Part shown: piece by piece, positions 1 to 51,449 of the stretch
Numbering within the stretch: position 1 is the stretch's first letter
How the letters are laid out: each line of letters opens with the position of its first letter
DNA from: Campylobacteraceae bacterium
GTDB lineage: Bacteria > Campylobacterota > Campylobacteria > Campylobacterales > JALSKU01
Assembly: GCA_026993075.1 (NCBI GenBank)
Contig: JALWUQ010000005.1
Location: 1,022 to 65,021 of the forward strand
Length of the DNA: 64,000 nt
Reading direction: 5' to 3'
Translations under genes and position numbers: made by a program
The notes under the pieces: generated by a model
Database searches by the model: none
What the model was told of the DNA's origin: nothing
What the model saw: the letters and a program-made list of their open reading frames with translations, nothing else

Positions 1-1
1 T

Positions 2-1879: not shown

Positions 1880-1988
1880 TAGCCATTTTTTAAAAAATGA
1901 TAGAGTTACAAATAGTTTTAATACAAAATAAAAAACTTACAATATTGATATGAAATATTATGGGTGTCTATATTGTGCAGTAGTTTCA

Positions 1989-2645
1989 TTATGGTTTTGA
2001 GGTAAAGACTTCTATCTTTTTATCAATTATTTTTCTTTCCTTTGGTGCACTTTTTTTCTTTAGCAATTCATACCATCTTAAAGTTGCGTGTTTATATCCT
2101 ACAGAAGAAGAAACTTTGATGATATATTTTATCTCTTTTTTTGTTAATTTATTTTTCATAATCGATGCTGCGATAAGCTTTGATGATACAGTTTGCATAC
2201 TTTGTATGGATTTAAAAGCGTTTTTATAGTTTTTATTTTTTAAATTTTCGATAAAAATTTTATATTGAGAGGGTAAGTATTTTGTACTTATGTTACCTAT
2301 ATCATTTTGTAGGAGATTATAATAACCATCTAATTTATTGTTTGGTATTAACTGTTTGATTGAAGTATATTGTTCGCATCGATCTTTAATTAAAAGTGCA
2401 TTGTGCATGGCACACTCCCCAAGGTATATCTTAGCTATCGCATTTACATCTGTTCCACTTTTTGCACTGTGTAAAGCTCTTTTTAGTGCTATTGAGGCAA
2501 GTCTTGTCTCTCCCTTTAAATAATATCTTTTATAGCTTTCAAATGAGTTCGAAGCATTGACTCTGTATTTGTATTTTTCATTTATTTTAAAAGAACATCC
2601 GGCAAATAAAATTATAAAAATTATACTAAATGTTAAATTTTTCAT
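1989..2645 (-). CDS. Lipoprotein of unknown function, last gene of the Mla-like operon
   Basis: 218-aa ORF with a signal peptide and lipobox (IILFAGC). Its start overlaps the stop of the upstream MCE gene by 4 nt. No family recognised. Confidence 0.6.
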   Translation of the reverse strand: MKNLTFSIIFIILFAGCSFKINEKYKYRVNASNSFESYKRYYLKGETRLASIALKRALHSAKSGTDVNAIAKIYLGECAMHNALLIKDRCEQYTSIKQLIPNNKLDGYYNLLQNDIGNISTKYLPSQYKIFIENLKNKNYKNAFKSIQSMQTVSSKLIAASIMKNKLTKKEIKYIIKVSSSVGYKHATLRWYELLKKKSAPKERKIIDKKIEVFTSKP

Positions 2646-3574
2646 GGTAATTTTACCCTTTTATTGTTATCTTCAATCAAAGAATTTACTTTATTGAGTA
2701 AATTATTTGCCTTGTCCGCACCTAAGAGAATTTGCTCTTTTAAAAGAACTATATCTTTACTCGATGAGCCTACTGTATCGACTAATTTGTTAAGTTTTTT
2801 AAGTTTTTTCTTGATATCTGTTAAAATATCATTTATATTTTTTGGTATTTGTTCACTTGGTTTTATGATATTGTGATTTAATTCTTTTAATATACTGTTT
2901 ATCTGTATGGTGATATTTTTGACCTCTTTCATGCTTTGTTTTAGATAGTCGATGCTTTGGGATATATTGTAAGAACTGTTTGTCTCACCCATCACAGTAT
3001 CTATGATGGATTTATTGTTTGCAAATTTTCCGGTAATGACTTGTAAATTATCCATAGTTTTAAATAATGGACCTTTTGGCGATGCCAGTTTTTTAACTAT
3101 TTTATCCGTATTTGTTATGATATTTGAAAGTTTAACAACTATTGGTTTTAGTTTTATAACAAGCGAATTTATATCATCTTTGACTTCAAAGTCAAGTATG
3201 GCATTTGGGGTAATTTTTGGATAATTTGGATCAGATATGACAGATATAACAGCACCGCCGATAAGAGGCTTATTTAGTACCAAATAAGCTCTTTTATTGA
3301 TCCACTTTGCATTTTTTGCATCTACAATGAAGTGGACGAAGACTTTTCCATCATAAGTGAAGTTGATTTTATTGATATAGCCTATATCAAAACCAGAATA
3401 TTTTATGGGTGTTCCTATGTTGAAATTATTTGCACTATTTGCATAAAACGCATAAGTATAATGTTTATCAAACATGCCTTTGCTTTTTAGTACAAAATAA
3501 ATCGCAAAAGAGAGTGCAGTAATCGTAAAAAAAGTAAATATCCCAACAGAAATCCTCATTTTATTATAAGACAT
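2642..3574 (-). CDS. mlaD: MlaD/MCE-domain periplasmic component of an Mla-like ABC transporter
   Basis: 310 aa. One N-terminal TM helix is followed by an MCE-like core (GTPIKYSGFDIGYINKINF...) and a long helical tail. It sits in an operon with a MlaE-like permease. Confidence 0.75.
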   Translation of the reverse strand: MSYNKMRISVGIFTFFTITALSFAIYFVLKSKGMFDKHYTYAFYANSANNFNIGTPIKYSGFDIGYINKINFTYDGKVFVHFIVDAKNAKWINKRAYLVLNKPLIGGAVISVISDPNYPKITPNAILDFEVKDDINSLVIKLKPIVVKLSNIITNTDKIVKKLASPKGPLFKTMDNLQVITGKFANNKSIIDTVMGETNSSYNISQSIDYLKQSMKEVKNITIQINSILKELNHNIIKPSEQIPKNINDILTDIKKKLKKLNKLVDTVGSSSKDIVLLKEQILLGADKANNLLNKVNSLIEDNNKRVKLP

Positions 3575-4038
3575 TTGTTTTCCTTGTAGTAATTGTGTAA
3601 GGTTGTGTCAACTATTTGTATTCTTTTGTTAAATATATTGGATAATTTGATTATATAATCAATATCTTCTATTTTATCTATCATGGAGAATGGCTTAATT
3701 ATCGTTATCATTTCGCAACTACTTACATAAGCTCTTAAAAACTGTATCAGCAAACGATCTTTTTTACCTATTTCAAAAGGCAGTTTGTCTCTTAATTCTT
3801 CAAGTCCAGATTTTTGTAACAGATTTGAAGTAATTTTTTTGGATTTTTTAATATTGAATCTATTGTGATATTCCAAAATAAGTGATATATTTTGGGTCAC
3901 AGTGAGTTCTGAAAGCAAAGGAGTATTTTCGCTGACTATACTGGTTTTCTCACTTTCAATATATTTATTAAGAGTATCGATATCCTCAAAGATTTTTATA
4001 TAAATTCTATTATTAATGATAACACCTCTATAAAACAA
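3556..4038 (-). CDS. Truncated, catalytically degenerate MlaF-like ABC ATPase domain (no Walker A)
   Basis: The 160-aa ORF aligns by eye to the C-terminal two thirds of MlaF. The Q-loop region is IVSENTPLLSELTVTQNI. The signature position reads EIGKKD instead of LSGGM. The Walker B position reads ITIIKPFSMID instead of hhhhDEP. No P-loop is present, and there is no room for one because mlaE ends at 3996. Confidence 0.6.
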   Translation of the reverse strand: MFYRGVIINNRIYIKIFEDIDTLNKYIESEKTSIVSENTPLLSELTVTQNISLILEYHNRFNIKKSKKITSNLLQKSGLEELRDKLPFEIGKKDRLLIQFLRAYVSSCEMITIIKPFSMIDKIEDIDYIIKLSNIFNKRIQIVDTTLHNYYKENKCLIIK

Positions 4039-4754
4039 ATTATAATAAAAAGAGAAGATATGGTTTTTGACAGACTAAAGGGGATTTCAAAATATCTTTT
4101 TTTTGTCATAAGTCCATCATAGCTTGGAATGGTAACTATGATAAAACCAAATAATAAACTTTTAAATACAAATATCAAAATATCTTTTAATGATATGGCT
4201 TTTACTAATGTTGATAAAAATATATCCAGATTCATTCCCATTATAAGAAAAAGAAAAACATATCCACTAATCATCATAATAAGAGAAAATAAAAATGCCA
4301 GTGATAAAAAGCCGAGCATGTTGCCCAATGCTCTTGGCATAAATAGGTATTTTACTGTATCTATACCAAATATCTCTAATGTATTTAACTCATTATTGAC
4401 TTTCATTATAGAAGTTTTGGCCGAAACTCTAAGACCTGTTCTAAAAGATATGATAAGAGCCAGCAAGAAAGGCACAAGCTCAACTATAATCAGTTTTATT
4501 ATCAAATAACCTATATATTGTTGCATATTGTATTCTATCGATAGTGAAACAATCAGCCCCATGATGATAACACCAAATACAATCGCAGATAATAAGAATA
4601 CGGGTAATATTTCAATAGCTGTGTAAAAGATTTGTTGCACCAAAACTTGCCTTGAAGCAGGATTGTAATTTTTAGGATTAAACATATATAACAGGCAAAC
4701 TACCGAAAAAAAATAGTATTTAGTAAAATGTATTATACCTGAAAAAATATTCAT
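3996..4754 (-). CDS. mlaE: MlaE-family ABC transporter permease
   Basis: Polytopic membrane protein of ~252 aa with MlaE-like length and topology. I prefer the ATG at 4754, which is preceded by agagg (SD), over the TTG at 4778. Confidence 0.75.
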   Translation of the reverse strand: MNIFSGIIHFTKYYFFSVVCLLYMFNPKNYNPASRQVLVQQIFYTAIEILPVFLLSAIVFGVIIMGLIVSLSIEYNMQQYIGYLIIKLIIVELVPFLLALIISFRTGLRVSAKTSIMKVNNELNTLEIFGIDTVKYLFMPRALGNMLGFLSLAFLFSLIMMISGYVFLFLIMGMNLDIFLSTLVKAISLKDILIFVFKSLLFGFIIVTIPSYDGLMTKKRYFEIPFSLSKTISSLFIIICFIEVLSLIIEFI

Positions 4755-5151
4755 GTTAACCTCTGATTTAATATGCAATATCGGTTAATAATAACACAAA
4801 TATACTAAAAACCATATATTTTTTAAAAAATATCATTACACAAAGGATCAAAAGCCTATTGGCAAAACAAATACTATTAAGATAAATAACTTTATAAGCA
4901 GTATTTTATTTACCAAATTTTTTTCCATTTTTTGACTATTTTTGCGACATCCCCCATGCAGTAATTTTCACTTGGATTATTCTCCTTTATTTGGATAATA
5001 TTATTATATGATCAAAATGTTAATATAGAATTAACAATTTAAAATGTGTAAGATCAGTTATCAGTACCAAGTGCAAGTAATCAAAGATTAAAAGAAAAAG
5101 AGTTATAATCTGTTTATAAATCTTAAACAGTTAATATTTCAAGGAATACAG

Positions 5152-6024
5152 ATGAAAACAAAACGAGAAATAACAGTTGCCCATTCGCCCGATGCTGATG
5201 ATATTTTTATGTACTATGCTATTAAGTTCGGGTGGGTAGGGAGTAAAAATATAAGATTTAAAAATCTCGCTCTTGATATAGAGACGCTAAATAAAAAGAC
5301 TTTGCAAGGCATATATGACATAAGTGCCATTAGTTTTGCACTTTATCCAAAGATAAAAGACGAATATGCTCTTTTAAAAACAGCTGTTAGTTTTGGAGAG
5401 GGATATGGACCTAAGTTGATAAAGAAAAAAGGGAGTAAATTAAAAAGAAATTTTAAAGTAGCCTTAAGTGGTGAAAATACAACAAATGCTCTTCTTTTTA
5501 AAGTAGCATACCCTGATGCAAGAATTATTTACAAAAACTTTTTAGATATAGAAAAATCTGTTCTTGAGGGTGAATGTGATGCTGGAGTTTTAATACATGA
5601 GAGTATTTTAGAGTTTGATAAGAGTCTGGTGGTAGAGAGAGAGATTTGGGATATTTGGCAAGATCTTTCAAAAGAAGATATTCCTTTGCCTTTAGGCGGA
5701 ATGGCAATAAGACGCTCTATTCCTTTAAATATTGCCATAGAATGTGAAGAAATTTTAACTAAAGCTGTCAGGATTGCAAGAGATAATGCAATGTTTATGT
5801 CAAAAATGTTGATAGAGAGAAATCTTATGAGGGTTGATGAGACAACACTTGAGCAATATTTAAACCTTTATGCAAATGAAAATTCTATCTCCTTAAATGA
5901 TTTACAGATAAAAGCTATAGATAAACTTTTTGAAATAGGCTATAATAACGGATATTTTGATGAACTTATAAGTTGTGAAGATTACTTCATACCAAATGAA
6001 TACAAGGAGTTAAGGAGCAGATAA
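5152..6024 (+). CDS. MqnA/MqnD-family (VitK2 biosynthesis) menaquinone/futalosine-pathway protein
   Basis: 290 aa. The N-terminal VAHSPDADDIFMYYAI motif and overall periplasmic-binding-protein-like layout fit the MqnA/MqnD family. The subfamily is not resolved. Confidence 0.6.
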   Translation: MKTKREITVAHSPDADDIFMYYAIKFGWVGSKNIRFKNLALDIETLNKKTLQGIYDISAISFALYPKIKDEYALLKTAVSFGEGYGPKLIKKKGSKLKRNFKVALSGENTTNALLFKVAYPDARIIYKNFLDIEKSVLEGECDAGVLIHESILEFDKSLVVEREIWDIWQDLSKEDIPLPLGGMAIRRSIPLNIAIECEEILTKAVRIARDNAMFMSKMLIERNLMRVDETTLEQYLNLYANENSISLNDLQIKAIDKLFEIGYNNGYFDELISCEDYFIPNEYKELRSR

Positions 6025-6290
6025 TGGAAGCAAAACTCATAGGTCTTGGTGTTGAAACTTTTAAGTTAGCTCTTTATCTGTCTTTGCCGATGCTTCTTTC
6101 TGGTTTGATTGCCGGACTAGCTATCAGTATATTTCAAGCTACTACCCAGATCAATGAAATGACACTTAGTTTTGTTCCAAAGATTATATTGGTTGTAGTT
6201 GTTATAATATTTACAATGCCTTGGATGATGAATATGATGATAGAGTTTACAAAACATGTTTTAAATATGATTCCAAGTTTTATATTTTGA
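6024..6290 (+). CDS. fliQ: Flagellar export apparatus protein FliQ
   Basis: 88 aa with two TM helices and the conserved LSFVPKI motif. ATGA-type junction with the upstream gene. Confidence 0.9.
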   Translation: MEAKLIGLGVETFKLALYLSLPMLLSGLIAGLAISIFQATTQINEMTLSFVPKIILVVVVIIFTMPWMMNMMIEFTKHVLNMIPSFIF

Positions 6291-7057
6291 AGCTATTAGA
6301 CTTTTCAAAATACAGTAGCATCAAAATAGGCCCTACAGTTAAAATAAAGATAATTGATAAGATAAAAAAAGAAAATGAAAGTTATACTATAATTGGTGGA
6401 GCAAATAATTTGCTTGTTTCGCCAAATCCGCCAAAACTTGCAAAACTTTCAAAATCATTTGATTATATCTACCAAAAAGATAATCTTTTATATATCGGCG
6501 GAGCAACGCCAAGCGGAAAAATTCTCTCTTATGCAAAAAAAAATGATATTGCCCATTTTGAAATAATGCAAAAACTCCCAGGTCTTCTTGGCGGTATAGT
6601 AAAGATGAATGCGGGACTCAAAGAATATGAGATTTCTAACTATTTGCTTTACATTAAAACTATAAATAATTATATTGAAAAAGATAATATAAAGTTTTCT
6701 TATAGATATACTAATATAAAAAATATAATTTATGAAGCTGTTTTTAAAATTGAAAAAGGATTTAACTATAAACTTTTTAAATACTTTGAGAATCTAAGAG
6801 CAAATCAACCAAATTTACCAAGTGCGGGAAGTTGTTTTAAAAATCCAAAAGGTTACTATGCCGGAGAAATAATAGAAAATTGTGGACTAAAGGGGTATCA
6901 AAAAGGAAATGCTGCTTTTAGTAAGCAACATGCAAATTTTTTAGTTAATTTAGGAAATGCAAAATTTCAAGATGCTTTATATTTGATAGAATTAGCTGAG
7001 AATAAAGTTTTTGAAAAGTTTAAGATAAAGCTCGAAAAAGAAATAATTATATTGTAA
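6287..7057 (+). CDS. murB: UDP-N-acetylenolpyruvoylglucosamine reductase MurB
   Basis: Short epsilon-type MurB (KYSSIKIGP..., GGANNLL, PSAGSCFKNP, AKQHANFLVN). The likely TTG start at 6287 overlaps the fliQ stop (TTGA). The listed ORF start at 6221 lies inside fliQ. Confidence 0.85.
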   Translation: MKLLDFSKYSSIKIGPTVKIKIIDKIKKENESYTIIGGANNLLVSPNPPKLAKLSKSFDYIYQKDNLLYIGGATPSGKILSYAKKNDIAHFEIMQKLPGLLGGIVKMNAGLKEYEISNYLLYIKTINNYIEKDNIKFSYRYTNIKNIIYEAVFKIEKGFNYKLFKYFENLRANQPNLPSAGSCFKNPKGYYAGEIIENCGLKGYQKGNAAFSKQHANFLVNLGNAKFQDALYLIELAENKVFEKFKIKLEKEIIIL

Positions 7058-7206: not shown

Positions 7207-10200
7207 GTGGTAAAATATTTTAAAAATCTGTTTTTATCCATGCAAAGTGCAATTGTTTTATTTCTTATTTTTGCCGTAGTGTCGGCAATAGCAACATTTG
7301 TAGAGAGTGATTTTGGTACACAAACAGCATGGGCTATGATATATGGCACACTTTGGTTTGGAGCAATTCAACTGCTTCTTGGTATAAATTTAGCTTATAA
7401 TATATTTAAATATAAGCTTTACAAGAAAAATAAAATTCATGCTTTTATATTTCATATAGGGTTTTTATTTATTTTATTAGGTGCAGGTGTTACAAGATAT
7501 ATCGGATATGAAGGAATAATGCACATACGAGATGGGCAGAGCGAAAACAGGATGATTTCAAGCGAACCGTATATTCAAGTTGATGCTGTTAAGGGTAATA
7601 AAATCTATCATGTTGATAAAAAAGCTTATCTTTCAAAGATTAGTGATAATTATTTTGATTTGGATATGAATATCGGTGCTAAAAAGGCTGAAATTAAATA
7701 TTTAAAATTTGTACCGAATGCAACAAGCAGTATAGTTTATGCTCCAGATGGAAAACCAATGATATCTTTTATGAGTACAGACCCTGAAAATAGTAATTTT
7801 GTTTTAAAAGATAAGTCAAAAAAAGATGTTGGGAATATTATTTTTACATTAAATGGTACAAAACTAAAAAGTGCAAATTCTATATGGAGTAATCCGAAAG
7901 TAAATATAACAACCAATAACGGTAAATTTTACATTACATCAAACAAAGATATAACTGTTTTTAACATGGCTACTCAAGGTAAAAAGATACTAAAATCAGG
8001 TAAGCAATATAAATTTATCGGCAAAAGACTCTACACAATAGGCAAAATTAATTTTGCTCCAAAATCTATGAATATAAAAGGTAAAGAAGAGTTAATCTCC
8101 GGTGGAAAAACAAGAGCCGGTATGAGATTTAACGGTTTGGATGCGGTTGTTGTGCAGGTAAAATACAATGGTGATACAAAAAAAGTGACAATGTTCGGCC
8201 AAGGAAAAGGTGCCAAAGGATTTACCAAACATGAGACGATAGGCGGAATTCCGTTTAGCTTTGAGTGGGGATCAAAAGTTATAACTCTACCTTTTCATGT
8301 AAAACTTAGAAAATTTATCTTAGACAGATACCCAGGCTCAATGTCACCATCATCTTATGCAAGTGAAGTAACACTTATAGATAAGAAAAATGGAGTTGAC
8401 AGACCTTTTAGGATATATATGAACCATGTGCTTGATTATAAGAATTATAGATTTTTTCAATCTTCTTATGATAGAGATGAAAAAGGAACTATACTCTCAG
8501 TAAACCATGATCCTGGAAAATATCCGACATATTTTGGATATCTTCTTTTGGCAATAGGATTTATTTTGACTGTACTTAGTCCAAAAAGTAGATTTAGAAC
8601 ACTTGGAAGGAAAATACAACAAGAGATGAAAAAAAGTAAAAACGCAATAAGTGCTGTAATGATAGTTGCCTTTTTATCGGTATTGTTTTATGCACCTCAG
8701 CCATTGCAGGCACAGACAAAACTAACGCTCAAAGAAAGTATAAAGATAGCAAAAAAATATGAGAAAAAACATGCGGATGAGTTCGGACATTTACTTATGC
8801 AAAATAAAGAGGGAAGGATTGAGCCGATTGATTCTTTTGCCAATAATGTTTTAGATAAAGTCTCAAGAAAGAGAAGTTTTTACGGACTTGACGCAGACCA
8901 GATTATATTAGGTATGTTAAGTGCACCTGGAGTTTGGCAAAATATTCCTATGGTTAAAATATCTCATAGTAAGATAAAAAGGATTTTGGGGCTTAAACAA
9001 AGTGCAAAGTATGCCTCTTTTAAAGAGTTTTTTAACTATGGTGCAAAAAATCCGTATAAATTATCAACTTATGCCGAAGTAGCAAGTAGAAAGCCTCCGA
9101 TTGATAGAAATATGTTCGATAAAGATGTTTTAAGAGTTGATGAGAGACTAAATGTTTTATATTATGTCTATACCGGTTCTTTATTTAGGATATTTCCCAA
9201 GATAGACGATCCTACAAATAAATGGTATGATCCAAAAACAGCTATTTCAACTTTTCCAAAAGCTCAAAGTATTGAGATAAGAACTCTTTTGGCAAATTAT
9301 TTTGAAAGTTTAAACAAAGGCGTTAAAACAGGAAATTGGCAAAGTGCGGACAATGCATTGAAAGCCATATCAAATTACCAACAAAAATATGGGGCTAAAG
9401 TCATAGAAAATACTTCACATGTTAAAGCAGAGATACTTTATAACCGTTTAAATATATTTACTAGGTTGATACCTATTTATTTGATATCAGGTTTGTTATT
9501 GTTATTTGCTGTTATGTATAAGATGCTAAGACCAAAAAGTTCGGTAAAATGGTTTGAGCGAGCCTTATTTGTGGTGATATTTTTAGCATTTTTAACTCAG
9601 ATATTTAATATGGGACTAAGGTGGTATGTTGCAGGTCATGCACCTTGGAGTGATGGCTATGAATCGATGATATATATATCCTTTGCACTGATGTTGGCAG
9701 GGCTTATTTTTTCTAAGCATTCTACCATGGCTTTGTCTTTGACGGCTATTTTGACCGGAGTTTTTTTATTTGTTGCACATTTAAGTTGGATGGATCCACA
9801 GATAACAAACTTAGTACCAGTTCTTAAATCGTATTGGCTGATGATACATGTTTCAGTTATAACGGCGAGTTATGGATTTTTGGGACTTAATATGTTATTG
9901 GGAATGTTTACCCTTATTATGTATATTATGCTTAGTAATGATCCTAAAAATAAAAGAAATAAATCTATCCTAAATGGCATAACAGAAGCAACAAGGGTAA
10001 ATGAAATGTCTATGATACTTGGTCTTATGCTTTTAACTATGGGTAACTTTTTAGGCGGTGTTTGGGCAAATGAGTCTTGGGGTAAATATTGGAGTTGGGA
10101 TCCTAAAGAGACTTGGGCATTAATATCTATACTTGTCTATGCAGCAGTAGTTCATATGAGACTTGTTCCAAGACTGAATGGTCAATTTGCTTTTGCGGTA

Positions 10201-10602: not shown

Positions 10603-10679
10603 TGGCGCGGCGGACGAGGTTTGAACTCGCGACCCCCGGCGTGACAGGCCGGTATTCTGACCAGCTGAACTACCGCCGC
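10603..10679 (-). tRNA. tRNA-Asp (GTC)
   Basis: The reverse complement is GCGGCGGTAGTTCAGCTGGTCAGAATACCGGCCTGTCACGCCGGGGGTCGCGAGTTCAAACCTCGTCCGCCGCGCCA. It folds as a cloverleaf with anticodon loop CTGTCAC and an encoded CCA. Confidence 0.95.
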
Positions 10680-10742
10680 AACCTAAATAACAAAGTAACA
10701 ACAAACTACTTAGAAAACCTGTAATCTGTTTTTTTGTTAATA

Positions 10743-10818
10743 TGGTGGTCGCTACAAGACTCGAACTTGTGACATCCACCTTGTAAGGGTGGCGCTCTAC
10801 CAACTGAGCTAAGCGACC
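10743..10818 (-). tRNA. tRNA-Val (TAC)
   Basis: The reverse complement is GGTCGCTTAGCTCAGTTGGTAGAGCGCCACCCTTACAAGGTGGATGTCACAAGTTCGAGTCTTGTAGCGACCACCA, with anticodon loop CTTACAA and an encoded CCA. Confidence 0.95.
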
Positions 10819-10855
10819 AAGTGTTTGTCCAGGACTTTTTGACCATACTAAATGA

Positions 10856-10931
10856 TGGCGACCCCAAGGGGATTTGAACCCCTGTTACCGCCGTGAAAGG
10901 GCGGGGTCCTGGGCCACTAGACGATGGGGTC
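10856..10931 (-). tRNA. tRNA-Glu (TTC)
   Basis: The reverse complement is GACCCCATCGTCTAGTGGCCCAGGACCCCGCCCTTTCACGGCGGTAACAGGGGTTCAAATCCCCTTGGGGTCGCCA, with anticodon loop CTTTCAC. Confidence 0.95.
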
Positions 10932-11010
10932 ATTTAAATTATAAATGCTAAATTATGAGTGTTGAATAAAAAAATAATTTAAAATTCATAAGTCAAAATC
11001 AAACATTAAA

Positions 11011-11086
11011 TGGTGACCCCTGTTGGATTCGAACCAACGGCCCATTCCTTAAAAGGGAATTGCTCTACCAACTGAGCTAAGGAGTC
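11011..11086 (-). tRNA. tRNA-Lys (TTT)
   Basis: The reverse complement is GACTCCTTAGCTCAGTTGGTAGAGCAATTCCCTTTTAAGGAATGGGCCGTTGGTTCGAATCCAACAGGGGTCACCA, with anticodon loop CTTTTAA. Confidence 0.95.
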
Positions 11087-12365: not shown

Positions 12366-15143
12366 ATGGATTACAAAGATACGCTGCTTTTACCGAAGAC
12401 TTCATTTTCTATGAGAGGAAACCTGCCTCAAAATGAGCCCAAAAGGTATAAAGAGTGGTTTGAAGAAAAAAATGTATATGAAAAGATGAAGCAAAACAGA
12501 AAAAATACTAAAAAGAGTTTTACTTTGCATGACGGTCCTCCTTATGCAAACGGACATATTCACATAGGACATGCCTTAAATAAAATATTAAAAGATATGA
12601 TTGTTAAAAAACACTATTTTTTTGGTGAAGATGTAAGATATGTTCCAGGTTGGGATTGTCATGGGCTTCCGATTGAGCAACAAGTCGAACTTAAGATCGG
12701 GAAGCAAAAAAAAGATACTTTGCCAAAGAGTAAAATCAGAGAGTTATGCAGAGCCCATGCTGCCAAATTCTATAAAATCCAAGAACATGAGTTTAAAGCA
12801 CTTGGTGTCATAGGAGATTGGGAAAATCCTTACTTGACAATGAAGTTTGAATTTGAGGCAAATATCTACAGAGCACTTTGTGATATTGCAAAAAAAGGGC
12901 TTTTGGTCGAAAGAAGTAAGCCTATATATTGGTCATGGGCAGCAAAAACTGCTTTGGCTGAGGCTGAGGTGGAGTATCAGGACAAAGAAGATTATTCTAT
13001 ATTTGTAGCTTTTAAACTAAGTGATGAAGCAAAGAAAAAACTTAAAATTGACGGTAAAGCTTCTGTGATTATCTGGACAACCACACCCTGGACGCTACCT
13101 GCAAATATGGCGATAGCTTTAAATCCTGAAGAAGAGTATGTACTGACAAGTGACGGTTTTATAGTAGCTAAAAAATTGTATAAGAATTTAATAGAAGATG
13201 AAATTATAAAAGGCGATATAGTTAAAACATTCGCTTCAAAAGAGTTGGAACATTTAAATGCAATAAGTCCGCTAAATGGAAGAAATTCTAAGATTATTTT
13301 AGGTGAGCATGTCGAGATGAGCGGAGGTAGTGGATGCGTTCATACAGCTCCAGGTCATGGCGAGGATGATTATAGGGTTGCTCTTAGATATGATATTGAT
13401 GTTATTATGCCAGTTGATGAAGATGGACTTTATGATGAAACAATCATCAGAGAAAATTTAATCCCCAATGCAGAGGATTTTGTAGGCATGCATGTTTTTA
13501 GTGCAAATGATAAAATTTTGGAATTATTAGGGGATGCACTTATAAAATCTTCAAAATTTACCCACTCTTATCCATACTGCTGGAGAACCCACAAACCGGT
13601 AATTTATAGAGCTACAAGACAATGGTTTATAGCAATGGATAAAGAAACAGACGGTGGCATACTTAGAGATAATGCTTTAAATGAGATAAAAAAAGTTAGA
13701 TTTTTTCCAAAAACGGGCGAAAAAAGACTCCAGACTATGATAGAAAACAGACCTGATTGGTGTATAAGCAGGCAAAGAGACTGGGGTGTGCCTATCGCAT
13801 TTTTTAGAGATAAAATAAGCGGTGAACCTGTATTTGATAAGGAAATTTTGGAAAATATTGCAAATATTTTTGAGCAAAAAGGAGCAGATGCATGGTGGGA
13901 TCTTAGTATAGAAGAATTATTGCCTAAAAATTCAAAATATGATGCAAAAAATCTTACAAAAGTGATGGACATACTCGATGTTTGGTTTGATAGTGGTTCT
14001 ACTTGGAGAGCTGTCCTTGAAAGTGGGGATTATGATGCCGGGAGTTATCCTGCTGATATGTATCTTGAAGGAAGTGATCAACACAGAGGTTGGTTTCAAA
14101 GTTCACTTTTAGTAAGCACTGCCATAAATGCTCACGCCCCATATAAAGATATTTTAACTCATGGCTTTACAGTTGATAAAAAGGGTGAAAAGATGAGTAA
14201 GTCCAAAGGGAATGTTATCGCTCCTAATGATATAGCTAAAAAATATGGAGTGGAAATACTTAGACTTTGGGTTGGCATGAGTGATTATACTACGGATTTG
14301 AAAATAAGTGATTTGATTTTAAAACAAGTTGCAGAACAATACAGAAAGATAAGAAATACTTTTAGATTTTTACTTGCAAATGCAAATGATTTGGATACTT
14401 TAGAAAGCATAAAAAACTTCTCACCCATTGACAAATGGATACTTTCTAAAGCAAATAGAGTTTTTATAGAGTGTAAAGATGCTTTTGATGTGTATGATTT
14501 TTCAAAAGGGTTATCTCTTTTAAGTCATTTTATCACAAATCATTTAAGCGGAATATATCTTGATATATCAAAAGACAGGCTTTATTGTGATCCAAAAGAT
14601 TCCATTACAAGAAGAAGTTCTCAAAGCGCAATGGCACTTATTGCTAAAAATATGTTAACTCTATTTGCTCCTGTTCTTACTTATAGCGTTGATGAGATAT
14701 TAGAACACGCACCAAAAGTCATAAAAGGCGAATGTGAAGATGTTTTTGATCTTGTTTATGAAGAGTTGCCTGAAGTCGAAGATGACTTTGATGAAGATTA
14801 TATGATGGAAGCAAGAGAGAAGTTTTTTGAAATTGTTGACAGTCTTAAAAAAGATAAAAAGATAAAATCAACTTTAGAGTTGGTTTTGTTTTCAAATTCA
14901 CTTGAACTTGGTAAAATGACAGGTGCTGACGGTGAAGACTGGTTTACTGTGAGCAATATAATCTGTGCTACTAAAGATGAAGAGATAGGCTCTTTTACAG
15001 TTGGTAAAGATAAATTTAAAATATATTTTGCAAAAAGATATAAATGCCCTCGATGTTGGAAATACAGAGCTAAAGTTGAGAATGAGCTTTGCGGTCGATG
15101 CAAAGGTGAAAAGCCAAAAACAAGTTGTAGTATCGATGTTTAA
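12366..15143 (+). CDS. ileS: Isoleucine--tRNA ligase
   Basis: HIGH ([11 protein letters not shown]) and KMSKS motifs are present, with a C-terminal Zn-finger (CPRCW...CGRC). I prefer the ATG at 12366 ([12 protein letters not shown]) over the upstream TTG at 12351. Confidence 0.95.
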
Positions 15144-15269: not shown

Positions 15270-16625
15270 GTGATAACACTAAAAGAAGCATTGAGTATTC
15301 CAAAAGAAGAGATGGCTGAAGTTAGAAAAGATTTGCAAAATAAAATAAAACAAAATAAAGATTTGGGTGCTTATGTAGAACAATTAATCGGTACTGACAT
15401 AAGTATCAGCGGCGAGGGGATACCTATAGCCATAAAAGATAATATACAAGTAAAAAACTGGAGTGTAACTTGTGCTTCAAATATACTTCAAGGCTATAAG
15501 GCTCCTTATGATGCCTGCGTAATAGAAAACTTAAGAAAAGCAGGTTTAAGCCCGTTTGGAAGAACCAATATGGATGAATTTGCTATGGGAAGCTCTACTG
15601 AAACTTCATTTTATGGAAAAACCAAAAATCCTTTCAATTCAAAATGCGTACCCGGAGGAAGCAGTGGCGGAAGTGCGGCAGCGGTAAGTGCCGGGATTGC
15701 TATTGCTGCTCTTGGCAGTGATACGGGAGGAAGCATAAGACAGCCTGCTGCGTTTTGTGGGTGTGTCGGCATGAAACCTACTTATGGAAGAGTCAGCAGA
15801 TATGGTTTGAGTGCTTTTTCTAGCTCACTTGATCAAATAGGTCCTTTTGCACAAACAGTTGAAGATGCAGCTATTTTATATGATATCATCAGCGGTTATG
15901 ACAAAAGAGATTCTACTAGTGCCAATATCAAATACAACAAGGTATCTAAAAGTTTAAACAGTGATAGAAAATTGACTATTGCTGTGATTGAAAATTATCT
16001 TGAAAGTGCAAGTGATGAAGTTAGAATTAAAATAATAGATGCCATAAAGGCTCTTGAGAGTGCTGGTCATAAAATCATATACAAAAACAGACTAAATACA
16101 AAATATGATATTGCAACTTACTATATCATAGCAACCGCTGAAGCGAGTGCAAACTTAAGCAGATATGATGGGATAAGATATGGTAATCGAGCAGAAAGTA
16201 TAAATTTAAAAGAGATGTATAAAAAAACAAGAGGAGAGGGTTTTGGTGATGAGGTAAAAAGAAGAATACTTCTTGGAACTTTTGTTTTAAGCAGTGGGTA
16301 TTATGATGCATATTATATAAAAGCTCAAAAAGCAAGGCATCTCATAAAAGAACAGTTTGAAGAGATTTTAAATGAAGCAGACTTGATCTTTGCTCCTGTT
16401 ACTCCTACAACCGCATTTGAATTTGGAAGTATAAAAGATCCTTTGCAAATGTATCTTGAAGATATTTACACTATAGCCGTAAACCTTGCAGGACTTCCTG
16501 CCATTTCATTGCCACTTGGATTTGATAGTAAAAATCTTCCCGTGGGCGGTCAATTTATAGGTAAGTCTTTTGATGAGCAGACTTTGTTTGATGGTGCTTT
16601 AAGCTTGGAAAAATTACTGAAATAA
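15270..16625 (+). CDS. gatA: Glutamyl-tRNA(Gln) amidotransferase subunit A
   Basis: Amidase signature [11 protein letters not shown] plus [12 protein letters not shown]. 451 aa with a GTG start after aaggag. Confidence 0.93.
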
Positions 16626-32909: not shown

Positions 32910-32912
32910 TAA

Positions 32913-33047
32913 ATGAAATATTCATATTTTTCAAAAATACAAATACAAATAAAAACTATGAATGTTTCTCTTGCCCATTGGGGCAAAGCAATGCTAAAGA
33001 GGAATTTTGCTGAAGCTTGCTTTAGTAAAAAGGAGATTATTAGGTGA
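32913..33047 (+). CDS. Candidate 44-aa mini-ORF spanning the cassette (29-aa conserved core from ATG 32958)
   Basis: MKYSYFSKIQIQIKTMNVSLAHWGKAMLKRNFAEACFSKKEIIR. Its TGA overlaps the GTG start of the next gene (GTGA). The core is conserved in frame in copy 2. Confidence 0.35.
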   Translation: MKYSYFSKIQIQIKTMNVSLAHWGKAMLKRNFAEACFSKKEIIR

Positions 33048-33050
33048 AAA
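32913..33050 (+). repeat. Gene-start cassette copy 1 (paralogue of 38495-38627)
   Basis: About 85% identical by hand alignment to the copy upstream of proB. The last 41 nt differ at 1 position and contain aaggag plus the GTG start of the downstream gene. Bracketed by TGAAA at 32914-32918 and 33045-33049. Confidence 0.85.
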
Positions 33051-33535
33051 AAATTATATTAATATTGATTATGTTTGTGAGTTTACTTTTTTCATATAAC
33101 AGCAATGATTTAAATAAATTTAAAAAAAACAGAGATTGCCCAAAATGTGATCTTAGCTATGCTAATTTGAAAGGATGGGATATTACCTGGGCAGATTTAA
33201 AAGATGCAAACTTAAGCCATGCAAATCTAAATGGAGCCAATGCTCACAGGGCAGATTTTAGTGGTGCTGATTTAAGCTATGCAAGTTGCAAAGGAACAAA
33301 TTTAAAGGGAGTAAAATTTATAGGCGCAAAACTTGTAAAAGTTAATTTTACAAATGCAAGAATTTGGAAAAGCAATTTCACCAATGCTAAGATTGTAAAA
33401 TGTAATTTTAAAGGTGCGGCTCTTGGCTCAAGTATTTTTAAGGGAAACAATTTAAGTAATTCAAAATTTGACAGCAATACTATTTTATATAAAACGGTAT
33501 TTGAGCATGTTAAGGGAATACCAAAAAGGAAATAA
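33044..33535 (+). CDS. Secreted pentapeptide-repeat protein
   Basis: Signal peptide followed by tandem A(D/N)LxX pentapeptides (ANLKGWDITWADLKDANLSHANLNGANAHRADFSGADLSYA...). Confidence 0.8.
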   Translation: MKKIILILIMFVSLLFSYNSNDLNKFKKNRDCPKCDLSYANLKGWDITWADLKDANLSHANLNGANAHRADFSGADLSYASCKGTNLKGVKFIGAKLVKVNFTNARIWKSNFTNAKIVKCNFKGAALGSSIFKGNNLSNSKFDSNTILYKTVFEHVKGIPKRK

Positions 33536-33536
33536 T

Positions 33537-34637
33537 ATGGATACAAAAGAGTTGTTTTTTAAGTTGCTTTCATTCAAATCAATAACCCCAGATGATGGTG
33601 GAGCTTTTGAATTTATAAAAGATTATATGAAAGACTTTAAATCTGTAAGGCTTGATAAAAAGGGAATTAAAAACCTTTTTTTATATAAGAAATTTGGCGA
33701 AGGCAAACATCTTTGTTTTGCAGGACATATTGATGTGGTACCATCTGGTGAGGGATGGGACAGTGATCCTTTTGTACCGGTTGAGAAAAATGGATATATT
33801 TATGCCAGAGGTGCACAGGATATGAAAAGTGGAGTTTGTGCTTTCTTGCAAGCTTGCAAAGAGTGCAAAAAGTTTGATGGAACTCTCTCTTTACTTCTTA
33901 CAAGTGATGAAGAGGGTGAAGCAAAGTTTGGAACGGTTGAGGTTTTAAATTACTTGAAAAAAGAGAATTTTTTACCCGATTTTGCTGTAGTTGCCGAACC
34001 AACATGCGAAAAAATATTTGGTGATACCGTGAAAATAGGAAGAAGAGGTTCGATAAACGGATATCTTACTTTAAAAGGGAGACAAGGACATGCTGCCTAT
34101 CCTGATAAATCAATAAATCCTATCAACCTAATAGCACCGATTTTATTTAAAATAGCAGGTATTGATTTGGATAGTGGAGATGAAAATTTTGCTCCTAGTA
34201 AGTTTGTAATCACTGATATAAGATCTGGAATGCAAGTTACAAATGTAACTCCTGATAAGTTGGATATGATGTTTAATGTAAGAAATTCTACTAAAACATC
34301 AAAGAGTGATATTGAATCTTTTGTATATAAAAATTTTAAAGGATTTGAGACAGAAATTAGATTAAAACAAAGTTCAAAACCATTTTTGACAAATAGAAAC
34401 TCTAAAATAGTAAAGTTAATGTCTAAAACAATTAAAGAGTGTACCAAAGTAAATCCAAGTTTGAGCACTTCAGGGGGAACCAGTGATGCCAGATTTTTTG
34501 GTGAATTCGAAGTAGAAACTGTTGAATTTGGCGTAAAAAATGATACAATACATTCTGTAAATGAAAGAACAACTTTAAAAGAAGTAAAAAAGTTGGAAGA
34601 AGTTTTTAAAACTTTGATAAATAACTTAAAAGGATAA
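33537..34637 (+). CDS. dapE: Succinyl-diaminopimelate desuccinylase
   Basis: M20 peptidase motifs (CFAGHIDVVPSGEGWDSDPF, ARGAQDMKSG, SDEEGEA). I prefer the ATG at 33537 over the listed 33468, which overlaps the upstream gene. Confidence 0.85.
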   Translation: MDTKELFFKLLSFKSITPDDGGAFEFIKDYMKDFKSVRLDKKGIKNLFLYKKFGEGKHLCFAGHIDVVPSGEGWDSDPFVPVEKNGYIYARGAQDMKSGVCAFLQACKECKKFDGTLSLLLTSDEEGEAKFGTVEVLNYLKKENFLPDFAVVAEPTCEKIFGDTVKIGRRGSINGYLTLKGRQGHAAYPDKSINPINLIAPILFKIAGIDLDSGDENFAPSKFVITDIRSGMQVTNVTPDKLDMMFNVRNSTKTSKSDIESFVYKNFKGFETEIRLKQSSKPFLTNRNSKIVKLMSKTIKECTKVNPSLSTSGGTSDARFFGEFEVETVEFGVKNDTIHSVNERTTLKEVKKLEEVFKTLINNLKG

Positions 34638-37357: not shown

Positions 37358-38449
37358 ATGTTTACAGATAATGTAGAATTAACACTCAAATCCGGAAAAG
37401 GAGGTGCAGGTGCAGTATCATTCAGAAGAGAGAAATTCGTTATAAAAGGTGGTCCCGATGGCGGCGATGGCGGCGATGGCGGCGATATTTATATAAAAAT
37501 AGACAATAACAGTCATACCCTTTCTCATTTTAGAGGAAAACATATACTAAAAGCCGGAAATGGAAAACAAGGAGATGGAAGAAAAAGATATGGCAGCAAA
37601 GGAGAATCTTTAACAATATCTGTACCTCCTGGAACGCAAATCATAGATGCACAAAGTAACGAAGTGTTGTTTGATATGCTTGAAGAAGGTAAAAAAATTA
37701 AATTTTTAAAAGGTGGTAAAGGGGGGCTTGGTAACTGGCATTTTAGAAGTTCTACAAATCAGCGTCCAACATACGCGCAGCCAGGATTAACGGGTGAAGA
37801 GAAGCATATAAGGCTTGAGCTTAAACTTATAGCCGATGTAGGTTTGGTAGGTTTTCCAAATGTAGGAAAGTCAACACTTATATCAATATTATCCAACGCA
37901 ACACCTGAAATCGCAAATTATGAATTTACTACTTTAACACCAAAATTAGGTGTTGTAAATGTTGATAATTTTCACTCTTTTGTTATAGCGGATATTCCTG
38001 GTATAATAGAAGGTGCAAGTGATGGAAAAGGGCTTGGATTGGGCTTTTTAAAACATATTGAAAGAACAGAGTTTTTACTTTTCATGTTGGATATATCAAA
38101 TTACAGAAAATTAGAAGAACAGTATGAGTTATTGAAAAAAGAATTAGAAAATTTTTCAGACAATCTAACAAATAAAGCTTATGCAGTTGCTTTTACAAAA
38201 GTGGATACAAAGAGTGTTGAAAGTGTAAATGAAAAAATAAATGATTTTTTTAAAAAAATTGATTTACATCCTAGTGAAAAAAATAATTTTGGTTTTGATG
38301 AAAGATATTTATTTTTTAATCAAGACAAATATGAGTTCAATGAAAAAAAACCATTTTTTATCGCACCTCTGTCATCAGTAGCCAATATAAATAAAAAAGC
38401 GATTAAATACGCATTATATGATGGCGTAGGGGTTGTTTTAAAAAAGTAA
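37358..38449 (+). CDS. obg: GTPase Obg/CgtA
   Basis: Obg fold with Gly-rich repeats ([13 protein letters not shown]) and the G domain GFPNVGKST...DIPG. Confidence 0.95.
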
Positions 38450-38494
38450 AAAGTTTTTATATGCTGATAAAACTTTTACAAAAGGAGAGTGCAG

Positions 38495-38627
38495 GTGAAG
38501 CACTCATATTTCAAAAACACAAATAACAATAAAAATCATGAGAGTTTCTCTTGCTAGAGGCAAAGTTTTAGTGAGAGGAATTTTTACTGAAGCTTGCTTT
38601 AGTGAAAAGGAGATTATTAGGTGAAAA
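38495..38627 (+). repeat. Gene-start cassette copy 2 (paralogue of 32913-33050)
   Basis: See copy 1. Bracketed by AGGTGAA at 38493-38499 and 38619-38625. It supplies aaggag plus the GTG start of proB. Confidence 0.85.
38538..38624 (+). CDS. Candidate 28-aa mini-ORF (paralogue of the copy-1 core), stop overlapping the proB GTG
   Basis: MRVSLARGKVLVRGIFTEACFSEKEIIR compares with MNVSLAHWGKAMLKRNFAEACFSKKEIIR in copy 1. No SD precedes its ATG. A separate 20-codon ORF (38495-38557, VKHSYFKNTNNNKNHESFSC) starts at the SD-preceded GTG. Confidence 0.3.
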   Translation: MRVSLARGKVLVRGIFTEACFSEKEIIR

Positions 38628-39391
38628 GAGTTGTTGTAAAAGTCGGCAGTCATGTTTTAAGTGAACAAAATAGAATCGAAAAGACAAGAATGATGAATTT
38701 AGTTGAATTTGTATCTTTGCTGCATGATCGTTACGAAGTTATACTTGTAAGCTCAGGTGCGGTAGCAGCCGGGTATTCAAAGCTGAAACTTGATAAAAAT
38801 TTCATTTCAAACAGACAGGCGATAGCTTCAGTAGGTCAACCTTATTTGATGCGGGAATATCAGAAAAAATTTGAAAAATTTGAAAAACTTACAGCCCAGT
38901 TTCTTTTAACTGCTAGTGATCTTGATTCAAGAAAGAGAACAAAATTTGCTAAAAATGCCATAGAAGTTTGTTTAAAAAATAAAGTTATACCTATCATCAA
39001 TGAAAATGATACAACAGCAACGGATGAATTGGTTTTTGGAGATAATGACCAACTTTCAGCTCATGTTGCATATTACTTTAATGCTGATATACTTGTGATA
39101 TTGTCTGATATAGACGGATATTATGATAAAGATCCAAGAAAAAACAGTGAAGCAAAAATAAAAAAAATAGTCCATCAAATAAGTGAGGATGAATCCAAAA
39201 TCCCAAATGAACCGACTGATTTCTTTGCAACAGGAGGCATAGCTACAAAGCTTAAATCTGCAGATTTTCTTTTAAAAAGAGGCAAATCCATGTTTATGTG
39301 TGATGGTTTTAACTTAAATGATGCAAAAAGTTTTTTGCTGAATGAAGAACACCAGGGGGGAACACTGTTTTGTCCAAAGATGGTAGATTAA
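38621..39391 (+). CDS. proB: Glutamate 5-kinase
   Basis: MKRVVVKVGSHVL..., VSSGAVAAG, INENDTTATDEL, GDNDQLSA. Short form lacking PUA. Confidence 0.92.
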   Translation: MKRVVVKVGSHVLSEQNRIEKTRMMNLVEFVSLLHDRYEVILVSSGAVAAGYSKLKLDKNFISNRQAIASVGQPYLMREYQKKFEKFEKLTAQFLLTASDLDSRKRTKFAKNAIEVCLKNKVIPIINENDTTATDELVFGDNDQLSAHVAYYFNADILVILSDIDGYYDKDPRKNSEAKIKKIVHQISEDESKIPNEPTDFFATGGIATKLKSADFLLKRGKSMFMCDGFNLNDAKSFLLNEEHQGGTLFCPKMVD

Positions 39392-50174: not shown

Positions 50175-51449
50175 GTGAAAAAAATTATTGTTTTAATTTT
50201 AGTTTCTTTGGTTTCATTGTATGCTTATGATGCAAGTATTGATATAGTGAAAAACAGCGATAAATTACCAAGTATTATTGTACAAGATGCAACAAATATA
50301 AATTTTAATTCTAAAAAAATTGAAAAAAAGATATTTAAATTACTTATTGGCGATTTAAAAATATCAGCGAATTTTATAGTAGATGATTCTTATGTAAGAA
50401 CTTCTTATGATGGTAATTTTAAAAATAATTTTCAAAGTGATAAACATGTTAATTTGATACTTAGATTTAAACTTGAAAATGACGGTAATTCATTGATAGG
50501 ATATATGAAGCTTATAAATGCAAAAAATGGAAATATTGTTACACAAAAAATATATAAAATTTCAAATGATAGAAGATATCCTTTTTTAGCACATAAAATG
50601 ATTATAGATGCAAATAACGCAATAGGTGCACCCTCTATAGACTGGATGCAAAAATTTGTTATATTTTCTAAGATAACAGGTAAAAGAAAAAGTGATATTG
50701 TTATTTCTGATTATACTTTAAGCTATCAAAAAACCGTTGTGACAGGCGGTTTAAACATATTTCCAAAATGGGCTGATGATAATCAGGATGCTTTTTATTA
50801 TTCATCTTATAACGGAAGAATTCCAGTGCTTTATAGGGTAAATCTGGACAAAGGGACACGAACAAAAATAATATCGAGCCAAGGAATGCTTGTCTGTTCT
50901 GATGTAAGTAAAGATGGTACAAAACTATTGCTTACAATGGCTCCACATGACCAACCAGATGTTTATCTCTATAATATTAAAACTAAAAGAAAAGAGAGAT
51001 TAACAAAATTTCCAGGTATTGATGTTAGTGGAAATTTTATTGATAATGAAACAAGATTTGCATTTGTATCTGATAGACTTGGGTATCCAAATATTTTTGC
51101 AAAAAGATTTAACATAAATGCACCAGTAGAACAACTTGTATATCAGGGCAGAAATATAAGCTCATTTAGCTCTTATAATAATTATATAGTATTTTCCAGA
51201 AGAGAAGGTGATAGCGAATTTGGTAAAAACAGTTTCAATCTCTATCTCATATCAACCAAAACTCAATACATAAGACAGCTAACTGCAACAGGTAAAAATT
51301 ATTTTCCAAGATTTGCAAACAAAGGTGAGACGATAATGTTTATTAAAAATTATAAAGGTCAATCAGCATTGGGGATTATTAGATTATATTCTAACAAAAG
51401 TTTCCTTTTTCCATTAAAAGTTGGAAAAATTCAATCCATTGATTGGTAA
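50175..51449 (+). CDS. tolB: Tol-Pal system beta-propeller protein TolB
   Basis: Signal peptide from the GTG at 50175 (aaggag SD 6 nt upstream). The listed ATG at 50157 contains that SD. Repeated WD-like/propeller blades (PDVYLYN, FVSDRLGYPNIF). Confidence 0.85.
   Translation: MKKIIVLILVSLVSLYAYDASIDIVKNSDKLPSIIVQDATNINFNSKKIEKKIFKLLIGDLKISANFIVDDSYVRTSYDGNFKNNFQSDKHVNLILRFKLENDGNSLIGYMKLINAKNGNIVTQKIYKISNDRRYPFLAHKMIIDANNAIGAPSIDWMQKFVIFSKITGKRKSDIVISDYTLSYQKTVVTGGLNIFPKWADDNQDAFYYSSYNGRIPVLYRVNLDKGTRTKIISSQGMLVCSDVSKDGTKLLLTMAPHDQPDVYLYNIKTKRKERLTKFPGIDVSGNFIDNETRFAFVSDRLGYPNIFAKRFNINAPVEQLVYQGRNISSFSSYNNYIVFSRREGDSEFGKNSFNLYLISTKTQYIRQLTATGKNYFPRFANKGETIMFIKNYKGQSALGIIRLYSNKSFLFPLKVGKIQSIDW

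Follow-up and report, generated by a model that had tools for sequence, protein, structure and literature searches.

The obg-proB junction

We analyzed a 64,000-nt stretch of DNA from a Campylobacteraceae bacterium (contig JALWUQ010000005.1, positions 1,022 to 65,021; hereafter the window) and focused on the spacer between the genes for GTPase Obg (obg) and glutamate 5-kinase (proB). This spacer measures 171 nt, from the end of obg at 38449 to the proB GTG at 38621, and a full copy of a structured leader element, dispersed in sense orientation among Campylobacterales, occupies positions 38495-38620 within it. We refer to it as copy 2; another copy, copy 1, lies directly after mutS2 in the window. 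The features of the junction are listed below, with hairpins numbered P1 to P3, SD standing for Shine-Dalgarno sequence, and uORF for upstream open reading frame (ORF).

37358..38449, + strand: obg, the upstream gene, an ORF with its stop TAA at 38447-38449; the identical locus in an independent assembly (L009) carries Pfam GTP1_OBG/MMR_HSR1.
38450..38494, + strand: degenerate partial unit with a weak hairpin, ACAAAAGGAGA (GGAG at 38484-38487), and a spacer; alignable with the 3' module found in both copies.
38495..38557, + strand: uORF-a, GTG, 20 codons (VKHSYFKNTNNNKNHESFSC), TAG; in frame with proB, 126 nt upstream.
38497..38548, + strand: P1 hairpin (predicted fold), GAAGCACUCAU, A-rich loop, AUGAGAGUUUC; holds the T3/A5 runs at 38509-38517.
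38538..38624, + strand: uORF-b, an SD-less ATG within the 3' arm of P1, 28 codons, TGA at 38622-38624 overlapping the proB GTG.
38550..38565, + strand: P2 hairpin, CUUGCU-AGA-GGCAAAG with one U-G pair; family consensus CUUGCC-AAA-GGCAAAG.
38566..38580, + strand: linker UUUUAGUGAGAGGAA, with SD-like GAGAGGA at 38573-38579; near-invariant across 77 aligned copies.
38581..38608, + strand: P3 hairpin, UUUUU-ACUGAAGC-UU-GCUUUAGU-GAAAA, from RNAalifold and pair counts.
38609..38623, + strand: SD GGAG (38609-38612), 8-nt spacer, and proB start GTG; same sequence as copy 1 at 33032-33046.
38621..39391, + strand: proB, Pfam AA_kinase, start GTG at 38621-38623.

Copy 2 has every part that defines the family: P2, the linker with its SD-like GAGAGGAAUUUU, P3 with a U-run before it and an A-run after it, then AAAAGGAG, and 5-10 nt beyond that a start codon. 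It matches covariance model R1 over its full length at 83.3 bits (E = 2.9e-19), and from AGUGAGAGGAAUUUU on, positions 38566-38585 match the consensus exactly. Scanning the 64-kb window with the covariance model built from relatives returned copy 2 at this score, copy 1 at 64.1 bits, and a next match at ~20 bits. Both window copies are of the long form, which includes P1. The 45 nt from the obg stop to the GTG at 38495 look like the degenerate 3' module of another unit. Aligned to the 3' module, they read AGT.A.A.G..TTTTTA ... AAAAGGAGA ... AGGTGAA, and they supply the SD for GTG 38495. The fold of this segment was no better than that of shuffled sequences.

The other copy in the window is laid out as follows.

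32913..33046, + strand: copy 1, with P1 at 32915-32968, P2 at 32970-32988, SD-like motif at 32997-33004, P3 at 33005-33031, GGAG at 33032-33035, and GTG at 33044.

The ATG at 32913 lies 3 nt past the mutS2 stop and opens a short ORF that reads through the whole element, which we call a relay ORF (32913-33047, 44 codons, MKYSYF...). Its TGA at 33045-33047 overlaps the GTG of the next gene at 33044. A 39-mer that includes the GTG is common to the 3' ends of copies 1 and 2, exact save for one R position, and gave 2 matches in the window versus 0 expected (100 shuffles). The T-run within P1 is T5 in copy 1 (catatttttcaaaaa) and T3 in copy 2 (catatttcaaaaa). An original prediction for this DNA had described the spacer, the 44-codon ORF from 32913, the VKHSYF... 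frame from 38495 to TAG 38555-38557, the 28-aa core in another frame behind an SD-less ATG, and the run that is 2 nt shorter in copy 2; all of these are present as described.

A scan of the window for modules of U-run, hairpin, A-run, and GGAG gave the two copies and three probably fortuitous sites. A lone module of U-run, 5-bp hairpin, A-run, and GGAA, similar to the P3-SD part, lies at 51402-51429 (- strand) and scores 20.4 bits with the full model. The region around copy 1 also differs from relatives, in which an M20 peptidase gene directly follows mutS2. In the window, 32910-33537 holds copy 1 together with a 163-codon pentapeptide-repeat ORF (33044-33535). The two form one insertion, with the mutS2 stop on one side and, on the other, the ancestral AAAGGAAA..ATG that belongs to the M20 peptidase gene; this gene truly begins at ATG 33538 (MDTKELFF). 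One relative (L014) reads mutS2-TAA-AAAGGAAAATT-ATG and lacks the insertion. The arrangement at copy 1 raises the possibility that the element moves together with a gene, as a cassette of leader plus ORF.

The element inserted between obg and proB

We compared the junction with that of relatives, listed here with the identity of their ProB where available.

L012/L013, L014/L015, and L017: ProB 78-81% identical; obg and proB overlap by 1-17 nt.
L140, Sulfurospirillum sp. T05: ProB 66% identical; overlap of 20 nt.
L138: ProB 80% identical; gap of 17 nt, no element.
L141, Sulfurospirillum arcachonense: gap of 45 nt.
L142: ProB 76% identical; spacer of ~170 nt, no element.
L016: ProB 75% identical; two tandem short-form copies between obg and proB, with different P3.
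L052, metagenome contig: element before proB.

Against L138, orthology resumes exactly at the start codon, with ...ATG AAAAGAGTTGTCGTAAAAGTCGG in L138 and ...GTG AAAAGAGTTGTTGTAAAAGTCGG in the window. Copies 1 and 2 also share ...GGAGATTATTAGGTGAAAA, and therefore the SD, the spacer, and the start codon are part of the element. These alignments show that the element inserted at a junction where obg and proB of most relatives overlap or nearly abut, and that copy 2 now provides proB with its predicted ribosome-binding site and GTG start. The start of proB is ATG in strain L137 (see below) and in all relatives versus GTG in the window. The original prediction had proposed that a repeat interrupts an otherwise conserved junction, and this stands: the repeat is not due to chance, and the junction is tight in most relatives (1-20 nt of overlap or 17 nt apart). 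In L142, positions 1-6780 carry type I restriction gene fragments and an ORF with the helix-turn-helix of an IS3-type transposase, upstream of rplU.

Next, we compared copy 2 with strain L137, which comes from another sample and has a ProB 98% identical to that of the window. The differences are distributed as follows.

P1: 0/55.
Linker, P3, SD, and spacer: 1/55.
P2: 4/16.
5' remnant, 38450-38494: 7/45, the fastest-changing part of the spacer.

The constrained modules (P1 and linker-P3-SD) differ from the remnant with Fisher p = 0.0008. By these counts, the RNA modules of copy 2 are intact, and it is not decaying as an RNA. Its small ORF fares otherwise in L137: CGA replaces the TAG at 38555-38557, so that the uORF-a frame would continue to the TGA at 38588-38590 in P3, and the upstream SD is weakened to GAAG. 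The T3 and A5 homopolymers are the same in the window, in L009, and in L137.

A large family of structured leaders in Campylobacterales

A first pattern, made from the 3' end of the element, found eight loci in four metagenome-assembled genomes (MAGs) of Campylobacterales. The core pattern was then run against metagenome contigs and returned more than 119 stretches, mostly from hydrothermal-vent samples. After removal of chance matches, at least 98 distinct copies remained in Campylobacterales MAGs and metagenomes, plus one in the cultured species S. arcachonense. All family statistics below rest on these at least 98 copies or on subsets of them, which are related and non-independent. Outside the window, model R1 has 95 matches at E < 1e-3.

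The copies share a common plan: a pyrimidine-rich tract, P2 (CUUGCC-loop-GGCAAG, loop N3-8), the linker GCUUUAGUGAGAGGAAUUUU, P3, AAAAGGAGA, a spacer, and then the ATG, GTG, or TTG of a long ORF, with a modal SD-to-start spacing of 8 nt. The optional P1, present in about one-third of copies, has a 10-13 bp stem and an A-rich loop of 20-35 nt. RNAalifold recovered both P2 and P3 from 77 copies. In a model-based alignment of the 95 matches, P3 positions are 97.8% paired, versus 82.6% in shuffles, and the covariation score of P3 is 0.40, versus 0.12 in shuffles and at most 0.09 with slid partners. Five P3 pairs are each changed on both sides in 12-54 sequences; a second tally for P3 puts double changes at 28-54 per pair. 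The sequence of P3 itself is hypervariable, with 76 distinct cores among 97 copies. For P1, 93% of positions pair across 23 distinct arm pairs, compared with 82% when partners are shuffled (maximum 87% in 1000 shuffles), and compensatory CG/UA/AU changes occur at five positions. GU pairs far outnumber AC mismatches in both hairpins (41 versus 5 in P3 and 14 versus 2 in P1), which indicates that the folding strand is the sense strand of the downstream gene. Pairing in P2 was preset by the search pattern; nonetheless, the model search recovered a compensatory variant, CUAUGC-AGA-GCAUUAG, in S. arcachonense. A further candidate helix would pair the SD-like motif with the pyrimidine tract that precedes P2; it is 72% paired with no compensatory changes.

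No Rfam family corresponds to this element. Rfam 15 at gathering thresholds identified only four tRNAs in the window, clustered at 10606-11086 (- strand). Permissive Rfam scans of copies 1 and 2 gave only hairpin matches far below threshold, the best being mir-644 at 26.9 bits against a threshold of 96 bits. Neither the exact sequence nor such repeats in vent Campylobacterota were found in the papers searched, and the family is apparently undescribed. A scan for intrinsic terminators and promoters found nothing above shuffle background, with no + strand terminator in 38450-38620.

All of the at least 98 copies are sense to the downstream gene, and most lie between co-directional housekeeping genes; a same-strand ORF ends within 170 nt upstream in 60 of 86 assessable copies. 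The 66 downstream proteins examined carry 97 Pfam families with no functional theme. Recurrent ones include PurH (seven times), ProB (three times), and FtsY, PyrB, UvrC, MoeA, NFACT, and DAGK (twice each). GTG or TTG starts were assigned to 25 of 76 downstream genes (33%), which seems high for an AT-rich genome, although the rule used to pick starts (first NTG after the SD) could inflate this figure.

Several loci illustrate the range of contexts. The purH-linked copies, which we take as orthologous, preserve P3 by compensatory changes in several species, evidence for selection acting at that locus. These seven copies (L023, L046, L078, L103, L109, L115, and L130) lack the upstream ATG and are preceded by a conserved block of ~50 nt (TTTACCAT..CTAAACTC.ATTTAGATAAAATT) with an extended -10-like TGnTAAAAT; the block is probably a purH promoter or operator. 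Eleven copies with unrelated flanks (L036, L042, L056, L058, L080, L098, L106, L113, L120, and L129) have a near-identical P2-linker-P3-SD with P3 = GTTGGAATTYAYTTCCAAC, and their P1 stems differ by compensatory changes. P3 is thus uniform inside a subfamily and hypervariable between subfamilies. The uniformity suggests gene conversion or a matching, genome-specific trans-acting partner.

In S. arcachonense (L141, GCA_000597725.1), a copy with the compensatory-changed P2 and an intact 27-codon relay ORF lies between parA and parB (13079-13173). The same genome has weaker, apparently degenerate relatives at atpH-atpA (15623-15716), and a module consisting only of SD-like motif, P3, and SD at ~8790-8835, before obg. 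Unusual members were also seen. L005 591-728 (41.8 bits) has a ~45-nt insertion between linker and P3, and the N-terminus encoded by its downstream gene is CheW-like by eye. An uncultured Sulfurospirillum MAG (L001 3862-4200 and L006 1690-1822) carries tandem 87-nt (29-codon) units without P1 and canonical P2; one frame is open through the units and ends in a TGA on the downstream ATG, with the array partly masked as N.

A relay ORF crosses many copies and is absent from copy 2

In 19 copies, an ATG overlaps or abuts the upstream stop (ATGA or TAATG). The ORF that it opens crosses the whole element in 14 of the 19 and stops -6 to +5 of the downstream start; the rough chance expectation for this pattern is ~0.13. 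Of the remaining five, three belong to tandem arrays and end their ORF at the start of the next unit. The S. arcachonense copy has the same arrangement, with the parA TAA, 3 nt, ATG, 27 codons, and a TGA overlapping the parB GTG. The frame that finishes with NTGA on the gene's start runs open through the element in 30 of 75 copies, 24 of which have an upstream ATG, versus 9/27 for the other non-gene frame. An ATG 6-30 nt before the core is only modestly enriched on its own (55% versus 39% in shuffles), and the informative signal comes from conditioning on the stop of the upstream gene. Taken together, the read-through is non-random, and translation through the element probably matters.

The predicted peptide sequence is not conserved. 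Long forms with starts 54, 57, or 63 nt before the core encode ...VSLAKGKALVRGIF..., and those with starts at 52 or 55 nt encode ...FSCQRQSFSERNF...; the AGAGGAATTTT motif falls in different frames in copies 1 and 2. No start codon precedes P1 in 7 of 27 long forms, and one long-form subfamily stops after 4 codons. Copy 2, with 55 nt from start to P2 core, uses a common family alternative to the 57 nt of copy 1, and elsewhere in the family the 55-nt register is paired with P3 types that are open in that frame. The GTG at 38495 is in the frame of proB and not in the relay frame, with the TAG at 38555-38557 arising in the P2 loop and the TGA at 38588-38590 in P3. It lies 46 nt past the obg stop, and uORF-a ends 63 nt before proB. 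Only the SD-less uORF-b ends on the proB start, in the manner of a leader cistron, an architecture that copy 1 and 14 of the 19 junction copies have in full. On its reading frames, copy 2 is a copy without a relay, having lost the mini-ORF that many copies keep.

These results sort the earlier suggestions about the two copies. The contrast between a read-through ORF in copy 1 and none in copy 2 is real, and the read-through recurs in the family, as described above. That copy 2 is a decayed version holds for the read-through ORF alone; its RNA modules are intact, it scores higher with the model than copy 1, and its P1 and linker-P3-SD are nearly unchanged in L137. That the peptide is irrelevant holds for its sequence, with unrelated registers and many copies without an upstream start, and is doubtful for the act of translation through the element, which is probably relevant.

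A candidate portable translation-initiation module

We consider it more probable than any single alternative, and a little better than an even proposition, that the element acts as a portable module for translation initiation and keeps the genes of an operon translationally coupled, with the relay intact in copy 1 and not in copy 2. Insertion would bring a structured leader, an SD, and a start codon to the downstream gene. The 5' ATG at the upstream stop would be the former start of the downstream gene, now opening the short relay ORF, which would be read through all hairpins and the internal SD and terminate on the new start codon (RTGA). Ribosomes arriving from upstream would melt the leader structure and then re-initiate at the gene that follows. 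At copy 1, the path would lead from mutS2 through the intact relay ORF to the pentapeptide-repeat gene. Where the relay is missing, as in copy 2 and the purH leaders, initiation would occur directly at the strong SD beside P3. Because the register of GTG 38495 runs into the TAG in P2 and the TGA in P3, the most likely start of proB translation is direct initiation at the SD and GTG that the element brings.

Several observations weigh against this proposal. The relay function is deduced from the statistics of sequences that are related to one another and not independent. A spanning uORF is missing from about half of the copies, including the purH copies in primary 5' untranslated regions and the subfamily that stops after 4 codons; the hairpins and the conserved linker must therefore have a role besides the relay. 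The SD has a mean predicted probability of ~0.48 of being unpaired, which marks it as neither clearly accessible nor clearly sequestered, and the pairing of the pyrimidine tract with the SD-like motif lacks compensatory support. The near-invariance of P2 and linker and the uniformity of P3 within subfamilies are not explained by a relay. A bolder version, which we regard as tentative and rather doubtful, is that the family would be a novel type of genetic element, a self-propagating portable translation-initiation cassette that inserts exactly at operon start codons, where the orphaned start becomes the relay mini-ORF and coupling survives. P3 being uniform within a genome and hypervariable between genomes hints at a matching trans-acting partner, such as a transposase, an RNA, or a protein.

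Alternative explanations

The same P3 uniformity across at least 11 unrelated loci keeps two other explanations alive. The element could be selfish, non-autonomous mobile DNA of the miniature inverted-repeat (MITE), REP/REPIN, or IS200/IS605-derived type that integrates at start codons (target ~RTGA), its hairpins recognized as single-stranded DNA by a transposase encoded elsewhere, and its SD, start, and open frame serving only to make insertions harmless. Presence or absence at orthologous junctions, near-identical units in tandem arrays, the same P2-linker-P3-SD module at those unrelated loci, and the 39-nt 3' end with GTG common to copies 1 and 2 would all fit, and the excess of GU over AC is also compatible with strand-specific single-stranded DNA hairpins. 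Many copies also have RTGA at both ends, although this may simply reflect a common Met-Lys start. However, on reading the ends ATGAAAC... and ...GGAGATTATTAGGTG, neither terminal inverted repeats nor a target duplication of fixed length were seen, and the boundary on the 5' side, past ATGA, differs between copies in both length and sequence. No transposase was found near the copies, although none was examined specifically, and the sole match to a viral contig is a GC-rich chance match. The maintenance of P3 by compensation in the purH copies points to selection on the hairpin per locus, and the modules of copy 2 are conserved between strains while the flank drifts. On balance, we judge selfish DNA unlikely. 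A cis-regulatory RNA that binds a trans factor (a small molecule, a small RNA, or a global RNA-binding protein such as CsrA at the pair of GGA motifs), placing a broad housekeeping regulon under common control, would account for a near-invariant P2 and linker (GGCAAAGCUUUAGUGAGAGGAAUUUU) beside a freely covarying P3, for the fixed position directly before start codons, and for the same genes being led in several lineages (purH, proB, parB, ftsY, pyrB, and uvrC). The two GGA motifs of copy 2, at 38577-38579 and 38609-38611, are ~35 nt apart, inside the CsrA range of 10-63 nt, and one is in the SD; the first, however, sits in the linker and not in a hairpin loop. The downstream genes share no theme, gain and loss between close relatives as well as tandem copies would be unusual for riboswitches, and no Rfam family matches. 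We think this explanation improbable.

The remaining explanations concern the small ORFs. That the family encodes a functional micropeptide (MKHSYF...GKALVRGIFTEACFSKKEIIR), with copy 2 as its pseudogene, is very hard to sustain: copy 1 and several relatives do have a similar ORF of 39-46 codons, and in-frame TAA is avoided in the A-rich loops of those copies, but the two registers yield unrelated peptides, the AGAGGAATTTT frame shifts between copies 1 and 2, P3 covariation scrambles the residues, the start codon is missing in many short forms as well as in the long forms counted above, and among 5.8 billion proteins the copy 1 peptide matches only itself. Least credible of all is the suggestion that the T3/A5 runs form a phase-variable or ribosome-slippery site toggling between split and long ORF. 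It was prompted by the 2-nt T-run difference between the window copies, and it does not hold up. Phase-variable tracts usually reach at least 7-8 nt and show length polymorphism, whereas these are just 3 and 5 nt with no variation across the window, L009, and L137. A +1 shift would be needed to reach the copy 1 frame, and inspection found no X XXY YYZ or prfB-like motif. The L137 ORF is still interrupted, at another stop (the TGA in P3), and T-runs of 3 to 5 are ordinary among family members. As far as the alignments tell, the difference is an ordinary indel between diverged paralogs and not a switch.

Two further candidates were set aside. An amino-acid or antibiotic attenuator leader peptide does not agree with the unconserved register and peptide, the absence of the ORF from many copies, the lack of a + strand terminator in 38450-38620, or a P3 followed by an A-run and not a U-run. 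An integron attC cassette was not favored, as the element sits on the 5' side of its genes, inside housekeeping operons, with no integrase context in view.

Comparison with known systems

The closest parallels in design are leader cistrons that couple translation, such as the leader peptides tap-repA and repY-repZ, known from IncFII, IncB, and IncI plasmids, and, among synthetic constructs, the "bicistronic design" cassette. As in those systems, a short ORF begins at an SD and start upstream, holds the downstream SD, and stops on the downstream start (ATGA, GTGA, TAATG); the peptide sequence is unimportant, and translation opens the structure and delivers ribosomes, as we infer would happen here. 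Unlike them, the element recurs in many dispersed copies with hairpins conserved among them and precedes dozens of chromosomal genes that are unrelated to one another, its relay ORF is optional, and it has no known antisense RNA or pseudoknot partner.

Transcribed intergenic repeats include BOX of pneumococcus, ERIC/IRU of enterobacteria, Correia/NEMIS of Neisseria, and REP/BIME. These too are short (~100-150 nt), modular, hairpin-forming, and multi-copy, are co-transcribed with neighbors, vary in presence, and are sometimes tandem or partial. However, they occur in both orientations at variable distance from genes, and several have terminal inverted repeats and target duplications. We know of none that contains the downstream gene's SD and start codon or a read-through ORF.

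Orphan Rfam "Cis-reg" leaders resemble the element in their 5'-leader position, in having conserved unpaired nucleotides beside covarying helices, and in an SD at the 3' edge; the element differs in its lack of an Rfam match, of a common downstream function, and of stability between close relatives. SD-like 5' mRNA stabilizers, such as STAB-SD of Bacillus thuringiensis cryIIIA, and two-site CsrA leaders offer a last comparison: the putative SD-like purine motif (GAGAGGA) lies upstream of the real SD with no start codon after it, and two GGA lie ~35 nt apart, although the upstream GGA is outside a hairpin loop, unlike the usual site in CsrA leaders. The combination of a structured, SD-carrying repeat with a relay ORF was not found in Rfam or in the literature searched.

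Implications

With ~100 copies and 76 P3 variants, the family is a large and strongly covarying RNA motif that has no Rfam match. For annotation of these genomes, the element accounts for spacers of unusual length, for GTG start codons, and for small ORFs that are spurious. The parA-parB copy of S. arcachonense places the idea in a cultured species where it can be tested. If the proposed translation-initiation role is true, the element would be a natural, reusable module for dependable translation starts irrespective of neighboring sequence, the problem that synthetic bicistronic designs address, and it would show a route by which insertions can enter tightly overlapping operon junctions and leave coupling unbroken.

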